Source: Candidatus Levybacteria bacterium RIFCSPHIGHO2_02_FULL_40_18 (GTDB taxonomy: Bacteria > Patescibacteriota > Microgenomatia > Levybacterales > GWA1-39-11). From it: 64,000 bases of DNA. Positions 6,079 to 56,789 of the stretch are shown piece by piece. The notes beneath the pieces are model-generated. The model was given only the letters and a program-made list of their open reading frames with translations. It did not search any database and was not told the DNA's origin. The translations under genes were made by a program, and so were the position numbers. The stretch covers positions 86,799 through 150,798 of the forward strand of contig MFOC01000007.1 in NCBI GenBank assembly GCA_001782235.1, given 5' to 3'. Position 1 is the first letter of the stretch, and the number at the start of each line of letters is the position of its first letter.

Positions 6079-6384
6079 CTATCTGACGGCTCCTGAAAAA
6101 AGCAAAACAAGAATAATTGCTGTAATTATAGCGAAAGCAGCTATTGTCTTAAGAGCAAGATCTAGGGCTTGCTTTTTCTTTCCATCAAAATAAAGCTGGA
6201 AAGGTTCATAACCAAAGACATATGCCATCACGGCAGCGGAAAGAGTAAAAAGAGATATAGCGGCAATTGGGCCAATAATGGAATCGACAGGACCGGAAAT
6301 TTTTGTCCCGTAAAACATGACCGACGCAACAACCGCAATATACAATATTGCGCCAATAGCATTCAAAAACGGATTTTTAGTCAC
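6079..6384 (-). CDS. Integral membrane protein (3 predicted TM), unknown function
   Basis: 101 aa, GTG start, hydrophobic throughout; immediately downstream of tRNA-Asn on the minus strand. Confidence 0.55.
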   Translation of the reverse strand: MTKNPFLNAIGAILYIAVVASVMFYGTKISGPVDSIIGPIAAISLFTLSAAVMAYVFGYEPFQLYFDGKKKQALDLALKTIAAFAIITAIILVLLFSGAVR

Positions 6385-43168: not shown

Positions 43169-45673
43169 ATGAAATTACAAGGACTTTCGCAAAAAGTATT
43201 TTTGGATCGCTATTCTTTAAAAGATAAGAAGGGGAAGGCTCTCGAAAAAACCCCTGACCGCATGTGGAGGAGAGTGGCCGCGGCTGTTGCCGGTGTTGAG
43301 ACAACTTCCCAAAATAAGAAGCGCTGGGAAAAGGAATTTTATTCTGCGATGCAGGATTTTAAATATGTTCCCGGAGGAAGAATTTTGGCAGGCGCTGGGA
43401 CCGGTTTTGAAGTTACCTACTATAATTGCTTTGTAATTCCATCCCCCAAAGACTCACGTGAAGGGATTCTTGAAACCCTCAAGCAAATGGTAGAGATTAT
43501 GGCTCGCGGTGGGGGAGTCGGAATAAATCTTTCTTCCTTGCGACCGCGCGGGTTTCGCGTTGAAAAAGTAAACGGCTTCTCTTCAGGTCCCTGCAATTGG
43601 GCAGAACTTTTCTCCGTTGCAACAAAAGACATTATTCAACAGGGAGGTAGTCGCCGAGGGGCATTAATGCTTATGCTCTGGGATTGGCATCCTGATATTG
43701 AAGAATTTATTACTGTTAAACAAGATCTTTCCCGTATAAATGGCGCAAACCTTTCTGTCTGTGTTTCAGATTCTTTCATGGAGCAGGTTGAGCGCGATGG
43801 AGATTGGGACCTTGTCTTTCCGGACAGAAGAGATCCCGAGTATGATACAAAATGGGACGGAGATATATACACATGGCGTGCAATGGGCAAAAAGGTTGTA
43901 AAACATAAGACTATCAAAGCGCGCTACATGTGGGATCTAATTGCCGAGGCCGCCTGGAGATCTGCAGAGCCGGGAGTTGTCTTCATGGAACGATACAATA
44001 AACTGCACAATAATTGGTATTGGAACCGAATTAACTGCGTAAATCCATGCGGAGAGGAGGGCTTGCCGCCGTGGGGAGTTTGCAATCTTGGATCAATTAA
44101 TCTTTCAGCTCTTGTTCACGGCGATAATATTGACAAGAAGGGAAAGTTTGATTTTTCTCTACTTAAGAAAGTCACTCGGGCCGCTGTCCGATTTCAAGAC
44201 AATGTTATTGAAATGGATCCTTATATTTTTGATGGGATCAAAAAGACCCAATATGAAGGAGAAAGAAGAATAGGTCTTGGGACAATGGGTCTTGGAGATG
44301 CTTTGATTAAGCTTCATTTAAGATATGGGTCACCTGAATCCCTTCAGTTTATCGATCGCGTTTATAGAATTATAAGAGACGAGGCGTATAGGACCTCAGT
44401 TGAAATTGGCGCTGAGAAAGGATCTTTTGGAAAGTTTGACAAAAAACTTTATCCTCAGGGCAAGTTCATACAACTGTTGCCTGCTGATATTCAGAATGGA
44501 ATTAAGAAAAAAGGCATTAGAAATTCCATACTTCTTATGCAAGCGCCAACCGGGTCAACATCTCTTCTTGTTAATACAACCTCTGGAATTGAGCCGGTTT
44601 TTGAATTCGAATTTGTGAGGCGCGATAGAATAGGCGAGCATGTTGTCCGCCACTACTTATATGAACAATGGTATAAAAAACACGGCAAGGATATTGAGGC
44701 AGGCAAAATTGAGCGGCCCGATTTCTTTGTGTCGGCGAATGATCTGACGCCAGAAGATCATGTCAGGGCTCAGGCAATAATTCAAAAATATGTTGATGCA
44801 TCTATTTCAAAAACAGTTAATGCGCCTAATGCCCACACAGTTGAAGAAGTAAAAAAGCTTTACAACATGGCATACAAACTTGGTTGCAAAGGCGTTACAT
44901 ATATGAGAGAAGGATCCCGCGCAGGGGTCTTGGAACGCATAGATGATAAGAAGAAGGAAGAAGCTCCAAAGGTTGAAGTAAAAGCCCCACCGGTTACAAA
45001 GAGGCCGCCTGTTATGTATGGCTTGACTTACAAAACCCAAACGCCACTTGGAGACGCATTCATTACTATCAATAAAGATGAAGGAGGAAATCCCTTTGAA
45101 GCCTTTATAACCATTGGCAAATCAGGTTCTGATGTTGCTGCCATGACTGATGCTTTGGGCCGAATGATTTCCCTGACTCTTCGCCTTCAGAGTCCTATAC
45201 CGGCACGAGAACGCGTCAGACAGATTGTCGCACAGCTTTCGGGAATCGGCGGCATGAGAACAATCGGATTTGGAGAAAACAGGGTTCGGTCTGTGCCTGA
45301 TGCTGTAGCAAAAGTTTTAGCAGAGGAATTTGGATTTTCAGTCAACGGGATAGTTCGTGATCTAAAGACTTCGGAAAATACCGTAACAAACGGCCAGGTA
45401 GTTTCGGTATCGAATGGCGCAAACGGAAACGGAATTGTGGCAAAAACAAATGGCATCGTCACAAGTGCCAATGGTATAGCAAGTCCTGCGACTGCGCTAA
45501 ATGAATCGCAAAGCGAGGCGGCAGAGCAGACAGTTGTTATGGAACAATTAAGTATTGGGAGTGAGACCTCGACGCATAGCGCATTTGATTTTTGTCCCTC
45601 ATGCGGAGCAGCAACGCTCGCGCATGAAGAGGGATGCAAAAAATGCTATAGCTGCGGCTATAGTGAATGTTAA
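43169..45673 (+). CDS. nrdJ: Class II (adenosylcobalamin-dependent) ribonucleotide reductase
   Basis: 834 aa; ..GGGVGINLSSLRPRG.., ..NPCGEEGLPPWGVCNLGSINL.., ..APTGSTSLL..; C-terminal Cys4 finger CPSCG..CKKCYSCG. Confidence 0.9.
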   Translation: MKLQGLSQKVFLDRYSLKDKKGKALEKTPDRMWRRVAAAVAGVETTSQNKKRWEKEFYSAMQDFKYVPGGRILAGAGTGFEVTYYNCFVIPSPKDSREGILETLKQMVEIMARGGGVGINLSSLRPRGFRVEKVNGFSSGPCNWAELFSVATKDIIQQGGSRRGALMLMLWDWHPDIEEFITVKQDLSRINGANLSVCVSDSFMEQVERDGDWDLVFPDRRDPEYDTKWDGDIYTWRAMGKKVVKHKTIKARYMWDLIAEAAWRSAEPGVVFMERYNKLHNNWYWNRINCVNPCGEEGLPPWGVCNLGSINLSALVHGDNIDKKGKFDFSLLKKVTRAAVRFQDNVIEMDPYIFDGIKKTQYEGERRIGLGTMGLGDALIKLHLRYGSPESLQFIDRVYRIIRDEAYRTSVEIGAEKGSFGKFDKKLYPQGKFIQLLPADIQNGIKKKGIRNSILLMQAPTGSTSLLVNTTSGIEPVFEFEFVRRDRIGEHVVRHYLYEQWYKKHGKDIEAGKIERPDFFVSANDLTPEDHVRAQAIIQKYVDASISKTVNAPNAHTVEEVKKLYNMAYKLGCKGVTYMREGSRAGVLERIDDKKKEEAPKVEVKAPPVTKRPPVMYGLTYKTQTPLGDAFITINKDEGGNPFEAFITIGKSGSDVAAMTDALGRMISLTLRLQSPIPARERVRQIVAQLSGIGGMRTIGFGENRVRSVPDAVAKVLAEEFGFSVNGIVRDLKTSENTVTNGQVVSVSNGANGNGIVAKTNGIVTSANGIASPATALNESQSEAAEQTVVMEQLSIGSETSTHSAFDFCPSCGAATLAHEEGCKKCYSCGYSEC

Positions 45674-45699: not shown

Positions 45700-45838
45700 T
45701 AAGAGTATATATTTGGTAATCGCCGTGAAAGTCGGCGGAACTGCCGGTACTGTAATATCCAGAAAACAATATATACTTTCATCCCCGAGCAGGGTTAAGC
45801 GAAGAAGAATTCCTCTCGGGTTATCGAGAGGTTTTTTT
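45700..45838 (+). promoter_or_regulatory. Candidate cis-regulatory RNA leader (cobalamin-riboswitch-like core + terminator/antiterminator) ahead of the adenosyltransferase gene
   Basis: Closing helix AGTATATATT(45703-12)/AATATATACT(45768-77). Inside, CGCCG-UGAAAGU-CGGCG and ..CUGCCGGUACUGUAA resemble the GGUG..AA.UCC hairpin and CCCGCCACUGUAA core of B12 elements. CCCGAG (45784-89) can pair with CUCGGG in the terminator. Confidence 0.3.
45812..45838 (+). terminator. Intrinsic terminator
   Basis: CCTCTCG-GGTTAT-CGAGAGG followed by TTTTTTT. Confidence 0.75.
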
Positions 45839-54053: not shown

Positions 54054-54096
54054 CGGAAATTCTATTATAGCAGATGTTATAGGTGCGAGAGAATTA

Positions 54097-54190
54097 TGGG
54101 TGCGCTTGGATTCGAACCCCGTACAAAACTTACTTGTTCCCGAGGCTTACAGCCTCGCGTCACAAGAGCGTTTCTACGGGGCAAGCCAAA
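54097..54190 (-). other. tRNA-like remnant / structured element (not a foldable canonical tRNA)
   Basis: Contains CGAGG-CTGTAAG-CCTCG (GTA anticodon-like hairpin) and GGGGTTCGAATCC, but the T-stem has two G.A mismatches, there is no GG D-loop and no acceptor pairing. Instead CCCCGTA(5')/TACGGGG(3') pair. Confidence 0.3.
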
Positions 54191-54198
54191 GACATCTG

Positions 54199-54269
54199 TA
54201 GGCCCGGAAGGAGTCGGACCTTCGTGTCGACTTTATAAGAGTCGTGTCCTACCGTTGAACGACGGGCCT
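54199..54269 (-). tRNA. tRNA-Ile (anticodon TAT), atypical
   Basis: AGGCCCG/CGGGCCT acceptor (A1:U72), D-arm GTTC-AACGGTA-GGAC, CGACT-CTTATAA-AGTCG, 4-nt variable loop, T-arm GAAGG-TCCGACT-CCTTC (C at position 55). Confidence 0.65.
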
Positions 54270-54335
54270 AAAAATTTCTAAAACGCTTGCTTATTATACC
54301 AATACTGGGGTTAAACTTGAAGCCGACAAGTGGTT

Positions 54336-54371: not shown

Positions 54372-56789
54372 CTAAATGGAGCCGCCAGGTCCGAGCCTTC
54401 CTTCTGGGCCTTTGTCAACGCTTGATTGAATATCGCCAAGCACTTCGTATAATCGCGATCTCTTAGCAATTTCTGCCTCAACCAATTCTTTTTGTTTTCC
54501 GTATTTGAGTCTTGATAATTCTCTAATTAATTCTGCGACTCTTGGATTTTCAAGCTTTTTCTCGGCAACCAAATCTCGAGTTAAGTCCAATGAAAATGGC
54601 GTGGTAGGCTCAGAATTAATCAGAGTTTTTACGTATGCATGGAATCTTTCAACATTAATTAAATCCGCTTCGTTAAACACCGGTTGAAATTCATGTTGCA
54701 GGTAATTTGCATCAGAAACTCCTACCCGAAATGAAATTAATGTTCCGACATTTCCAAAGATTGCGTTTTTAACATCCTCCTCAATTTGACCGATAAACTG
54801 GTTCGCAACCGTTAGGTTTAATCTATATTTTCGGGCCTCTGACAAAATTTGTCCAAAATCGGGAGTCGCAAAATTCTGAAACTCATCAACGTAAAGATAG
54901 AAATCCCTACGTTGGTCTTGCGGCACATCTTGCCTTGACATTGCTGCGGCAAGAATTTTTGGAACCAAAATTAAACCCAAGAAGGAGGAATTATCTTCTC
55001 CAATTTTTCCTTTGGCAAGAGAGATAAGTAAAATCTTTCCCTGGTCCATAACTTCTCGCAGTGAAAATGCGCTTTTTGATTGCCCTATGATATTTCTCAT
55101 CATGCGGTTTGTGACAAAGCGGCCGAATTTTGAAACTATATAATCCAACACCTCAGACTTATGAAAATCTGAGGTTTGCGCAATCTGATCAGTCCAGTAG
55201 CGGCGAACAATTGGATCTTGAACTTTCGGCAAGAGCTCCTGCACAAAGGAAGAATCGGTTAGGACTCGGACAACCTCAACAAAAGTATTCCCCGGCTCTG
55301 ACATAACAGTGTACATGGCATTTCTTATAGCATGCTCAAAACGCGGTCCAATAATGCCAGTTTTATTAGGATCATATAATTTGTACATAAGTCCTATTAT
55401 TGACGTAATTATTAGGTCTTTTTGCTCTTCGGTTTGAACGTCCAACATGTTTAGTCCCATTGGGCGTTCCGTGTCTCCCGGATCAAAAAGAATTACGTCT
55501 TCTGCGCGCTCCGGAGGAATGAGAGGCAAGAGCATATCGATTGTGTCATGAGGATCAATAAAACAAACTCCATATCCAGCGCGAATGTCTTGTAAGATCA
55601 TGTCTTTTAAAAATTCTGATTTTCCTACGCCTGTCTTACCTATAATATACATATGACGGCGTCTGTCATCCTCCCCGATATAAACAGGCCGCGAGATCCC
55701 GCGATAAATGCTTTTCCCAGTGTATAATCCGGCGGAAGGAATATTTGCGGGTGCAGGCGCGACTCGGGCACCTAGCCAATGGATAGCAGGTGTCTCAACC
55801 GTTTTATTTGGAAAATGAAAAATTGTTGCAAGTTCATCTGTTGTTAAAACTCCGGGGTTGTTTGGCACAAGCGGAAGTTGACGATAGATAAAATCAATCA
55901 TTGCCATTCCCTTAAACAATCTATGCTTCACTTTTTCAAAGGAGTTAAAAGAAGAGAACTGTGAGAATGAGCCCACAATATTTGTAAGATGTGCTTCTGC
56001 GGATTCCTTTGTTGAAGAAGCAGTAAGGATTCTAACATGCGTTTCAAATCCGGGCTTTGTAATCTTTTGCTCAATTGCCTCAAGTTCTTTTTGATCAACC
56101 GAGTATTTTGCAGTTTCAGGATTCGCCTCTCTCTTTTTAGTGGTTGTAATGTATGATCGGCCGCTTTTTTTCCAAGCGTCGCCGGTAAGGGTTATCAAAA
56201 TTTGTAAAGCCGCAGCTTCTCCTTCCTGCATTTTTCCTAATGTGCTTGTAATTGATGAAAGAGGATCAACCGGAAGATCCTTATAGGTTTTTATTGGAAG
56301 ATAATGAGCTTTTGAGAGCTTTAGTTGTGCGTAGGCGATTTTACCTGGATTTTCAAAAAGATTATATTCTTCAACCTGAAGAATCTGCGCGTCTGGATAG
56401 CTTCCATGAATCTGCTTTTCAACCATGTCGCGAAGCCTATTTGGCACGCCAACATAAAATCTTATATCTTGAGGTTTTGCGACTATTTCAAAAGATATAA
56501 TGTCGGGAACTTTAAGAAATCCAAAAATTCCCTTAGTTCCTGCGATTGAAGTAAGACCTGAGAATAATTGATCTGCAGCGTCTATTTTTATCTCGTTTTC
56601 GCGTGGGAGTGATACCTCAAGAAGAGATGAGTCAAGAGCCTTCTCGTGTCTTTCTTGGGATTTTCGCCAAAACCCTAATGCCAAAAAAATCCCTAACAGG
56701 CACGCAATAACTACGGATGCCATTAAAAAGGCTAGGAGAAAAACAAAGACTAGATTAATAATGGCTTGCGAAAAAGCATCAAGCTGCAC
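54372..56789 (-). CDS. Type IV coupling-protein-like ATPase (VirD4/TraD/TraG family)
   Basis: 805 aa; N-terminal TM pair; Walker A HMYIIGKTGVGKSEFL, Walker B FYLYVDEFQNFAT, ..RKYRLNLTVANQ.. Confidence 0.6.
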   Translation of the reverse strand: MQLDAFSQAIINLVFVFLLAFLMASVVIACLLGIFLALGFWRKSQERHEKALDSSLLEVSLPRENEIKIDAADQLFSGLTSIAGTKGIFGFLKVPDIISFEIVAKPQDIRFYVGVPNRLRDMVEKQIHGSYPDAQILQVEEYNLFENPGKIAYAQLKLSKAHYLPIKTYKDLPVDPLSSITSTLGKMQEGEAAALQILITLTGDAWKKSGRSYITTTKKREANPETAKYSVDQKELEAIEQKITKPGFETHVRILTASSTKESAEAHLTNIVGSFSQFSSFNSFEKVKHRLFKGMAMIDFIYRQLPLVPNNPGVLTTDELATIFHFPNKTVETPAIHWLGARVAPAPANIPSAGLYTGKSIYRGISRPVYIGEDDRRRHMYIIGKTGVGKSEFLKDMILQDIRAGYGVCFIDPHDTIDMLLPLIPPERAEDVILFDPGDTERPMGLNMLDVQTEEQKDLIITSIIGLMYKLYDPNKTGIIGPRFEHAIRNAMYTVMSEPGNTFVEVVRVLTDSSFVQELLPKVQDPIVRRYWTDQIAQTSDFHKSEVLDYIVSKFGRFVTNRMMRNIIGQSKSAFSLREVMDQGKILLISLAKGKIGEDNSSFLGLILVPKILAAAMSRQDVPQDQRRDFYLYVDEFQNFATPDFGQILSEARKYRLNLTVANQFIGQIEEDVKNAIFGNVGTLISFRVGVSDANYLQHEFQPVFNEADLINVERFHAYVKTLINSEPTTPFSLDLTRDLVAEKKLENPRVAELIRELSRLKYGKQKELVEAEIAKRSRLYEVLGDIQSSVDKGPEGRLGPGGSI

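Follow-up and report, generated by a model that had tools for sequence, protein, structure and literature searches.

A gene for an isoleucine tRNA with an encoded UAU anticodon, which we call tRNA-Ile(UAU), lies in a stretch of 64,000 nucleotides (nt) of the genome of Candidatus Levybacteria bacterium RIFCSPHIGHO2_02_FULL_40_18 (contig MFOC01000007.1; the whole stretch is hereafter the window). We consider it probable that this tRNA is functional and reads the abundant AUA codons of the Levybacteria, and that it belongs to a vertically inherited family which replaces tRNA-Ile2(CAU) together with TilS. How to read AUA as isoleucine and yet not misread AUG is a classic problem of decoding, to which the textbook bacterial answer is lysidine, made by the essential enzyme TilS. 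The UAU solution itself is already known: what is new here is the phylogenetic scale on which tRNA-Ile(UAU) is found and the fact that a C is tolerated at its position 55. This solution would be the standard one for entire classes within the candidate phyla radiation, which makes up a large share of bacterial diversity, against a handful of species known earlier. The Levybacteria are Microgenomates, a group equated here with the class Microgenomatia of GTDB.

The preliminary description of this gene as a tRNA-Ile with an encoded UAU anticodon is borne out both by ARAGORN and by the Rfam model RF00005, neither of which makes it a pseudogene or gives it another identity. ARAGORN reports it (anticodon tat) at 54198-54269 as one of the three tRNAs of the window and places it on the minus strand, the strand having been absent from the preliminary description; the Rfam model matches 54199-54269 of that strand over all its positions (1-71 of 71) with 57.7 bits (gathering score 29, E=7.5e-10). 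The minus-strand transcript reads, element by element, AGGCCCG UC GUUC AACGGUA GGAC A CGACU CUUAUAA AGUCG ACAC GAAGG UCCGACU CCUUC CGGGCCU A. Every structural detail announced beforehand is seen in it: the acceptor stem of 7 base pairs (bp) with A1:U72, the two G of the D-loop (G18 and G19, in a loop of 7 nt), the variable loop of 4 nt, the T-stem of 5 bp and the C at position 55 (T-loop UCCGACU). The anticodon arm has a 5-bp stem and the loop CUUAUAA, where the anticodon UAU stands between U33 and A37, and the 3' end has the discriminator A73 but no encoded CCA. When folded without constraint, the molecule adopts the cloverleaf as its minimum-energy structure (-25.1 kcal/mol), with 21 of 21 stem pairs intact (20 Watson-Crick and one G-U). 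The invariant positions U8, A14, G18, G19, U33, G53, U54, C56, A58 and C61 are all there; U55 is replaced by C.

The identity set of IleRS, the isoleucyl-tRNA synthetase, in E. coli comprises A73, A35, U36, A37, A38, C4:G69, U12:A23 and C29:G41; the first six of these elements are present in the tRNA of the window, and it is through them that IleRS would charge it. We propose that an extended -10 promoter of its own drives transcription of the gene. The candidate for this promoter stops 23 nt before position 1 of the tRNA, and a scan for consensus promoters did not list it, its -35 hexamer matching the consensus at 3 of 6 positions. The CCA end would be added post-transcriptionally and U34 would then pair with the A of AUA, while misreading of AUG might be avoided either by a modification of U34 or by a tuning of the ribosome or of IleRS such as that of Mycoplasma mobile. 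If this holds, these genomes offer a large natural sample for studying how U34 tells A from G (by modification, by IleRS or by the ribosome), and automated annotation should expect tRNA-Ile(UAU) in them.

Codon usage, which the preliminary description had proposed to examine, is consistent with this role. In 39 open reading frames of the window, AUA occurs 26.8 times per 1000 codons and makes up 33% of the isoleucine codons, which means that an efficient reader of AUA is needed. Neither the window nor 1.32 Mb of related loci (these being loci and not whole genomes) yielded a TilS-like sequence, whether the PP-loop motif SGGxDS was sought or tblastn was run with the TilS of E. coli. On the scale of the phylum, we parsed the tRNA counts by anticodon which Nakagawa et al. 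(2026, PMC13011429, Table S2) obtained with ARAGORN for 95 complete genomes of Patescibacteria. At least two tRNAs with an isoleucine anticodon go with at most two CAU tRNAs in 39 genomes, and at most one of the former goes with at least three of the latter in 45; at least two isoleucine-anticodon tRNAs and at least three CAU tRNAs are counted in 10 genomes, and at most one and at most two, respectively, in a single genome. A second isoleucine-anticodon tRNA and a third CAU tRNA are thus almost mutually exclusive over the 95 genomes (Fisher p = 7e-16). The first group includes all 12 Microgenomatia, the second 29 of the 36 Saccharimonadia. The pattern of counts of the UAU type, found in the Microgenomatia, the Dojkabacteria, many Paceibacteria and others, concerns about 40% of the 95 genomes. 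The table leaves the anticodon of the second isoleucine tRNA unstated; judging from our own loci, it is likely to be UAU.

The surroundings of ftsH suggest the same replacement. In the saccharibacterium Southlakia epibionticum, the gene directly upstream of ftsH is annotated as TilS and only one tRNA-Ile is annotated, whereas tilS is upstream of ftsH in none of the nine ftsH loci which carry tRNA-Ile(UAU) (five selected by the sequence pattern described below and four by ftsH). In seven of these nine loci the upstream gene encodes an S1 protein; in the other two it is an aminoacyl-tRNA synthetase with a tRNA-binding protein, or an IS200-like open reading frame. The view that fits all these observations is that tRNA-Ile(UAU) and the pair tRNA-Ile2(CAU)/TilS would be alternative systems for AUA within one phylum, the Levybacteria using the former, and we infer that the genome of the window follows its class. 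The suggestion that AUA is decoded without TilS in this lineage thus gains indirect support from codon usage, from a conserved syntenic tRNA and from counts of the UAU type in 12 of 12 Microgenomatia. The statement that a UAU anticodon is rare stands for bacteria in general but not for this lineage, where it is the rule. TilS would also be less universal than assumed, both as a drug target and as a phylogenetic marker. Our literature searches found no paper linking TilS, lysidine or AUA decoding to the candidate phyla radiation, nor is such a link made in the paper of Nakagawa et al.

Several points weigh against this reading. Two pairs of the IleRS identity set differ in the tRNA of the window, which has U12-G23 for U12:A23 and A29:U41 for C29:G41. 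The argument at the level of classes assumes that the second isoleucine tRNA of the table is a UAU tRNA and not a second GAU copy. The C at position 55 might lower the stability or the function of the tRNA, given the contact which G18 and U55 make in the elbow. Lastly, the 10 genomes with at least two isoleucine-anticodon and at least three CAU tRNAs seem to have both systems, which makes their coexistence possible. In that case tRNA-Ile(UAU) could be a redundant or accessory reader of AUA, standing beside a normal TilS and tRNA-Ile2(CAU) encoded elsewhere in the genome, of which about 64 kb were examined. Lactobacilli give a precedent, both systems being present in L. plantarum and L. casei (PMC3575796), and Southlakia shows that TilS occurs in at least one member of the phylum. 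Nevertheless, a third CAU tRNA appears in none of the 12 complete genomes of Microgenomatia, the 1.32 Mb of related DNA mentioned above hold nothing like TilS, and the conservation and synteny of tRNA-Ile(UAU) extend over classes whose genomes are strongly reduced, which is not what a dispensable duplicate would lead one to expect. We therefore regard a merely accessory role as unlikely.

We searched one genome per species, for 185,579 species, with the pattern GGTA-N10-CTTATAA-N12/13-GGTCCGANTCC, which describes a tRNA(UAU) whose T-arm has C55. The complete list of matches has 78 loci, nearly all from Patescibacteria: Microgenomates (Levy-, Roizman-, Gottesman-, Woese-, Ames- and Curtissbacteria), Parcubacteria (Magasanik-, Falkow-, Azam-, Nealson- and Spechtbacteria) and also Saccharibacteria. 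About 30 of them are labelled "uncultured Gammaproteobacteria". We took these labels as wrong, because at least nine of the loci hold, beside the tRNA, the gene of the radiation for a homologue of the coupling protein VirD4 (60-76% identity; hereafter the VirD4-like gene), and because several others have tRNAs identical to those of named metagenome-assembled genomes of Roizman- and Gottesmanbacteria. The 76 tRNAs of this set which ARAGORN recovers diverge widely in every stem with their pairing kept, and A73 is found in 76 of 76 genes. With all samples pooled we have 108 distinct sequences of tRNA-Ile(UAU), in which 99.5% of the pairs at the 21 stem positions are canonical, with up to 5 types of pair at a position and many compensatory changes. 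As such divergent stems stay paired, the family appears to be under purifying selection on its structure and is not, from these sequences, one of pseudogenes.

Two samples were chosen without regard to the tRNA. The first is made of 80 metagenome loci fetched by alignment of the VirD4-like protein alone; 39 of them contain tRNA-Ile(UAU), 34 with U55 and 5 with C55. The second is made of four loci of Parcubacteria picked through FtsH only; all four have the order S1-ftsH-tRNA-Ile(UAU)-tRNA-Val without tilS, and one of the four has C55. At least 37 of the 78 loci of the pattern set have the VirD4-like gene next to the tRNA, with 44-76% amino-acid identity, and this synteny spans Microgenomates and Saccharibacteria-like genomes. 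From the samples chosen by the VirD4-like protein or by FtsH, we concluded that tRNA-Ile(UAU) is, as far as comparison of sequences can tell, a conserved core gene across the radiation and that C55 is a minority variant of it. The family would have been inherited vertically across the Microgenomates, many Parcubacteria and some Saccharibacteria.

The "non-canonical positions" of the preliminary description are present, but they are less singular than it implied. A1:U72 is ordinary for a tRNA-Ile (ileV of E. coli begins with AGGCUUG and ends with CAGGCCUA), the 4-nt variable loop is common to a whole subfamily, and C55 is a recurrent minority variant. Within the window C55 is specific to tRNA-Ile(UAU), as the T-arms of tRNA-Asn and tRNA-Ser have the canonical GGTTCGAATCC. 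Where the tRNA played no part in the choice of loci, 6 of 43 genes for tRNA-Ile(UAU) (14%) have C55. Among the 178 other tRNAs of the sampled loci, 16 have C55 (about 9%) and 17 have G55 (about 10%), the latter for the most part tRNA-Cys, tRNA-Leu(UAA) and a reduced initiator tRNA (for instance the T-loop UGCAAGU in tRNA-Cys and tRNA-Leu(UAA)); C55 is also seen in Met, Gly, Val and Arg tRNAs that are otherwise normal. With such frequencies, C55 cannot be retained as a hallmark of the AUA decoder. It also switches between close relatives, since the closest relative of the tRNA of the window, in locus L116, shares its A1:U72 and its 4-nt variable loop but has U55. C55 is thus, on this sequence record, a tolerated and recurrent U-to-C variant of the T-loop, and position 55 appears to be kept less strictly here than in other bacteria. 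With C or G in about one fifth of the sampled tRNAs, the universality of the elbow contact made by U55 or pseudouridine 55 comes into question.

Some further observations concern position 55. It is loose in tRNAs generally in the loci L017 and L175-L178 and in other loci of the Parcubacteria type. The initiator tRNA-Met of Microgenomates is cut to 69-71 nt: the D-stem has 3 bp and the anticodon stem 6 bp, the D-loop lacks G18 G19 and the variable loop has 3 nt; its T-loops read for example CGCGACU or CGCAACU instead of UUCGAAU, and ARAGORN misses some of these tRNAs altogether (examples are given in Table 1).

The same position is what could make one take tRNA-Ile(UAU) for a decaying or crippled pseudogene, in which C55 breaks the G18-U55 contact and decay also shows at the other odd positions. 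U55, described as conserved, contacts G18 in the canonical elbow, and pseudouridine 55 is described as the tRNA modification with the most universal conservation (PMC7912444); this modification is impossible in the tRNA of the window, as its position 55 is a C. Its Rfam score is also lower than that of the tRNA-Asn of the window (57.7 against 70.7), and a true tRNA relic adjoins it. Decay is nonetheless very improbable when the 21 stem pairs are intact and every invariant position except 55 is present, when C55 is kept with fully compensated stems in 76 very divergent species and is shared with normal Met, Gly, Val and Arg tRNAs, and when the sequence of the tRNA is the same in five independent assemblies.

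Least probable of all is that the tRNA was brought by a phage, a prophage or a conjugative element and serves the codon usage of that element: seven IMG/VR phage contigs do have tRNA-Ile(UAU) with C55, a VirD4-like gene does lie upstream and the relic of a displaced tRNA downstream, but the phage tRNAs are not close in sequence, no phage genes were found near the tRNA of the window, the UAU pattern matches phage contigs at least 120 times with U55 against 7 times with C55, homologues of VirD4 are common in these genomes and lie mostly away from the type IV secretion cluster (bioRxiv 10.1101/2025.01.22.634366), and the synteny of tRNA and VirD4-like gene across the phylum, at 44-76% protein identity, makes both of them core genes. 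The phage contigs in question (L006-L012) carry arrays of up to 24 tRNAs, with a few other C55 tRNAs among them (Phe, Asn, Val).

The relic is that of an older tRNA-Ile(UAU), of the type commoner in Microgenomates. It carries U55 and ends with ...GGTTCGAATCCAAGCGCACCCA (54097-54118, minus strand), and its acceptor strand does not fit the intact tRNA. A profile of the 3' halves of tRNA-Ile(UAU) finds it with nhmmer (match 54097-54126, E=0.0012). Its final 22-mer occurs once in the window where 0.01 occurrences are expected; outside the species, with up to 3 mismatches, it occurs at 16 places, 14 of which are 3' ends of annotated genes for tRNA-Ile(UAU), the remaining two being a tRNA-Val and an unannotated tRNA-Ile(UAU) truncated by the end of its sequence. 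The relic is the same in five independent assemblies (L001-L005). Together with its 5' edge, the spacer of 72 nt which separates it from the tRNA folds into a long hairpin: the 145-nt region 54054-54198 of the minus strand has a fold of -46.9 kcal/mol (z = -3.55, with none of 200 shuffles as low). This relic, 72 nt downstream, suggests that the copy of the window has displaced an earlier tRNA-Ile(UAU), and it points to genes being replaced over lengths of about 100 nt, as opposed to an island.

A search with profiles made from the family's 3' and 5' halves showed the arrangement of the window, in a better state of preservation, in other genomes. In this layout, an old 5' half ending in CTTA is followed by a short spacer, a complete tRNA-Ile(UAU), another short spacer and a 3' half starting with TAA. 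If 113 nt (L045), 104 nt (L139) or 121 nt (L030) are removed in silico, ARAGORN accepts the rejoined halves as a tRNA-Ile(tat); these three loci leave no doubt about the junction, which is CTTA^TAA and separates anticodon positions 35 and 36. The same site would also suit L117 (116 nt) and L074 (123 nt, from CP066686.1, a closed chromosome of Woesebacteria). In L030, which is nested twice, a second 5' relic lies further out. L080 is a duplication, and partial or decayed relics are seen in L127, L110, L032 and L036 as well as in the window. Nesting is not confined to the TTATAA palindrome of tRNA-Ile(UAU), because an elongator tRNA-Met(CAU) is also affected: in L110 (6060-6360, plus strand) the intact gene (6157-6231) is flanked by older halves (the 5' half ends in TTCAT and the 3' half starts with CATAA), which are themselves inside fragments of a still older copy. 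The outer tRNAs are not reported by the intron mode of ARAGORN.

These arrangements are not ordinary products of an integrase (attL/attR). The inner tRNA pairs with itself, the outer halves pair together and the junctions CTTA + TAA have no duplicated core; as there is neither a chimera of host and element nor a duplicated core, a simple formation of attL/attR is excluded. Of 8 nested genes, 3 have an acceptor stem prolonged by inverted repeats of at least 7 bp, against 0 of 107 non-nested genes for tRNA-Ile, which means that such repeats are not a general feature of the tRNA genes of these genomes. The predicted fold of a nested gene is one long helix with the outer anticodon stem at one end and the inner acceptor stem at the other. 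The ends of the cassettes recur (GCGGCGGGCAGG in L045 and L139, TGACA in L117, L074 and the Met gene of L110), and hairpins similar to that of the window adjoin the inserted tRNA cassettes in L030, L117, L074 and L032. No group I intron model matched in 18 VirD4-like loci without a nearby tRNA-Ile (the nested loci were outside that search). Our literature searches for nested tRNA genes found no description of them, only work on the disruption of tRNAs in archaea.

We put forward tentatively, and with less confidence than the decoding role of the tRNA, the idea that cassettes of about 100-125 nt carry a tRNA-Ile(UAU) or a tRNA-Met(CAU), insert at the 35/36 site, and so kill and replace the resident gene; the tRNA of the window would be the invader and the relic its victim. 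These cassettes, often with terminal inverted repeats, may use the preference of the group I introns of the phylum for the 35/36 site, and they would move by homing once the palindromic TTA^TAA has been cut, with the help of a hairpin-dependent (IS200-like) transposase, or by a route at the level of RNA. IS200-like Y1 enzymes insert DNA next to hairpins without duplicating the target. An open reading frame of 233 amino acids beside ftsH and tRNA-Ile(UAU) (L044, 6117-6818, plus strand) has a weak match to the IS200-like Y1 transposases (PF01797, E=5e-4, below the Pfam cut-off). It is a possibility that alleles with C55 are spread by such cassettes. If the nested genes do form a true mobile system, they would be a new route for the replacement of an essential RNA gene and a new kind of self-replacing tRNA-gene element.

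Table 1. Coordinates of the tRNA gene of the window, of the features next to it, and of nested and reduced tRNA genes in related loci.
Feature	Sequence	Coordinates	Strand	Basis or remarks
tRNA-Ile(UAU) gene, 71 nt	window	54199..54269	-	ARAGORN, Rfam RF00005, cloverleaf minimum-energy fold
Candidate promoter	window	54293..54321	-	TTCAAG (54321-54316), 17-nt spacer, extended -10 TGgTATAAT (54301-54293); inferred from reading of the sequence
VirD4-like coupling-protein homologue (DUF8128, TraG-D_C)	window	54372..56723	-	Pfam matches; directly upstream of the tRNA
Spacer between tRNA and relic, 72 nt	window	54127..54198	-	folds with the 5' edge of the relic into a long hairpin
Decayed 3' relic of an older tRNA-Ile(UAU)	window	54097..54126	-	T-loop, 3' strand of T-stem, 3' strand of acceptor stem, A73
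Nested tRNA-Ile(UAU)	L045	1104-1288	-	
Nested tRNA-Ile(UAU)	L139	3601-3778	+	
Nested tRNA-Ile(UAU)	L030	4413-4639	-	
Nested tRNA-Ile(UAU)	L117	6329-6516	+	
Nested tRNA-Ile(UAU)	L074	2738-2931	-	
Reduced initiator tRNA-Met	L015	2204-2274		
Reduced initiator tRNA-Met	L030	963-1033		
Reduced initiator tRNA-Met	L034	644-714		
Reduced initiator tRNA-Met	L058	3803-3872		
Reduced initiator tRNA-Met	L083	104-173		
Reduced initiator tRNA-Met	L093	8253-8322		

The window is chromosomal: it holds dnaG, rpoD, ruvABC, dnaA, dnaN, smpB, the transfer-messenger RNA, a type IV secretion-like cluster and ribonucleotide reductase, and the locus of the tRNA recurs in at least 23 metagenome contigs. Four proteins of the window either agree in every residue with proteins of metagenome-assembled genomes of Candidatus Levybacteria (OGH15955, OGH15964, OGH15965 and others) or share a 90% cluster with them. 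A gene for a class II (B12-dependent) ribonucleotide reductase lies at 43169-45673 (plus strand); an AdoCbl-II riboswitch (45704-45777, plus strand, 39.8 bits) stands between it and a cobalamin adenosyltransferase gene. A tyrosine recombinase of about 300 amino acids, with 44-84% identity to the query across the phylum, is encoded in 55 loci (for example L152, 6187-7086, and L081, 3037-3942, both on the minus strand); in 49 of them it is close to tRNA-Ile(UAU), within about 1 kb in most and usually in convergent orientation, and six have the recombinase without a detected tRNA-Ile. The conserved order is VirD4-like gene, tRNA-Ile(UAU), recombinase, and in the window a SpoIID-like gene takes the place of the recombinase. 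In genomes of the Parcubacteria type and in some labelled Saccharibacteria, tRNA-Ile(UAU) is directly downstream of ftsH (L018, L021, L025, L044, L050, L017, L175-L178).

Among known systems, that of Mycoplasma mobile is established: its tRNA-Ile2(UAU) has an unmodified U34 and pseudouridine 55, and it works with an adapting arginine in IleRS and an adapted ribosome (Taniguchi et al. 2013, PMC3575796). As in M. mobile, which has a small genome and no tilS, an encoded UAU would here read AUA without lysidine, in place of tRNA-Ile2(CAU); unlike the mycoplasmal tRNA with its pseudouridine 55, the tRNA of the window has C55. The scale also differs, since a tRNA-Ile(UAU) in place of lysidine was known from nine species in three clades in 2013 (PMC3575796), and 17 bacterial genomes with tRNA-Ile(UAU) were counted in 2021 (PMC8450103), whereas whole classes of Patescibacteria are concerned here. 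A replacement by UAU has been inferred for Bifidobacterium and Neorickettsia (both with an IleRS of eukaryotic type) and for a few archaea, including Nanoarchaeum and Korarchaeum (PMC3575796, PMC8450103); in these lineages, which are unrelated to the Levybacteria, the enzyme modifying C34 was lost alongside the presence of a UAU tRNA-Ile, as we propose here. The canonical tRNA-Ile2(CAU) with TilS does the same work of reading AUA as isoleucine in the same phylum, namely in Southlakia, but it depends on lysidine at C34 and on a third CAU tRNA, whereas the counts for the Microgenomatia give at most two CAU tRNAs and two isoleucine-anticodon tRNAs. As for the nested tRNA cassettes, their unusual 35/36 site and their phylum are also those of the group I introns described at anticodon position 35/36 in the tRNA-Asn as well as the tRNA-Asp of Patescibacteria (Nakagawa et al. 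2026, PMC13011429); the inserts of 104-123 nt are nevertheless made of a complete tRNA gene with short flanks and not of a ribozyme, and they are far too short for a group I intron.

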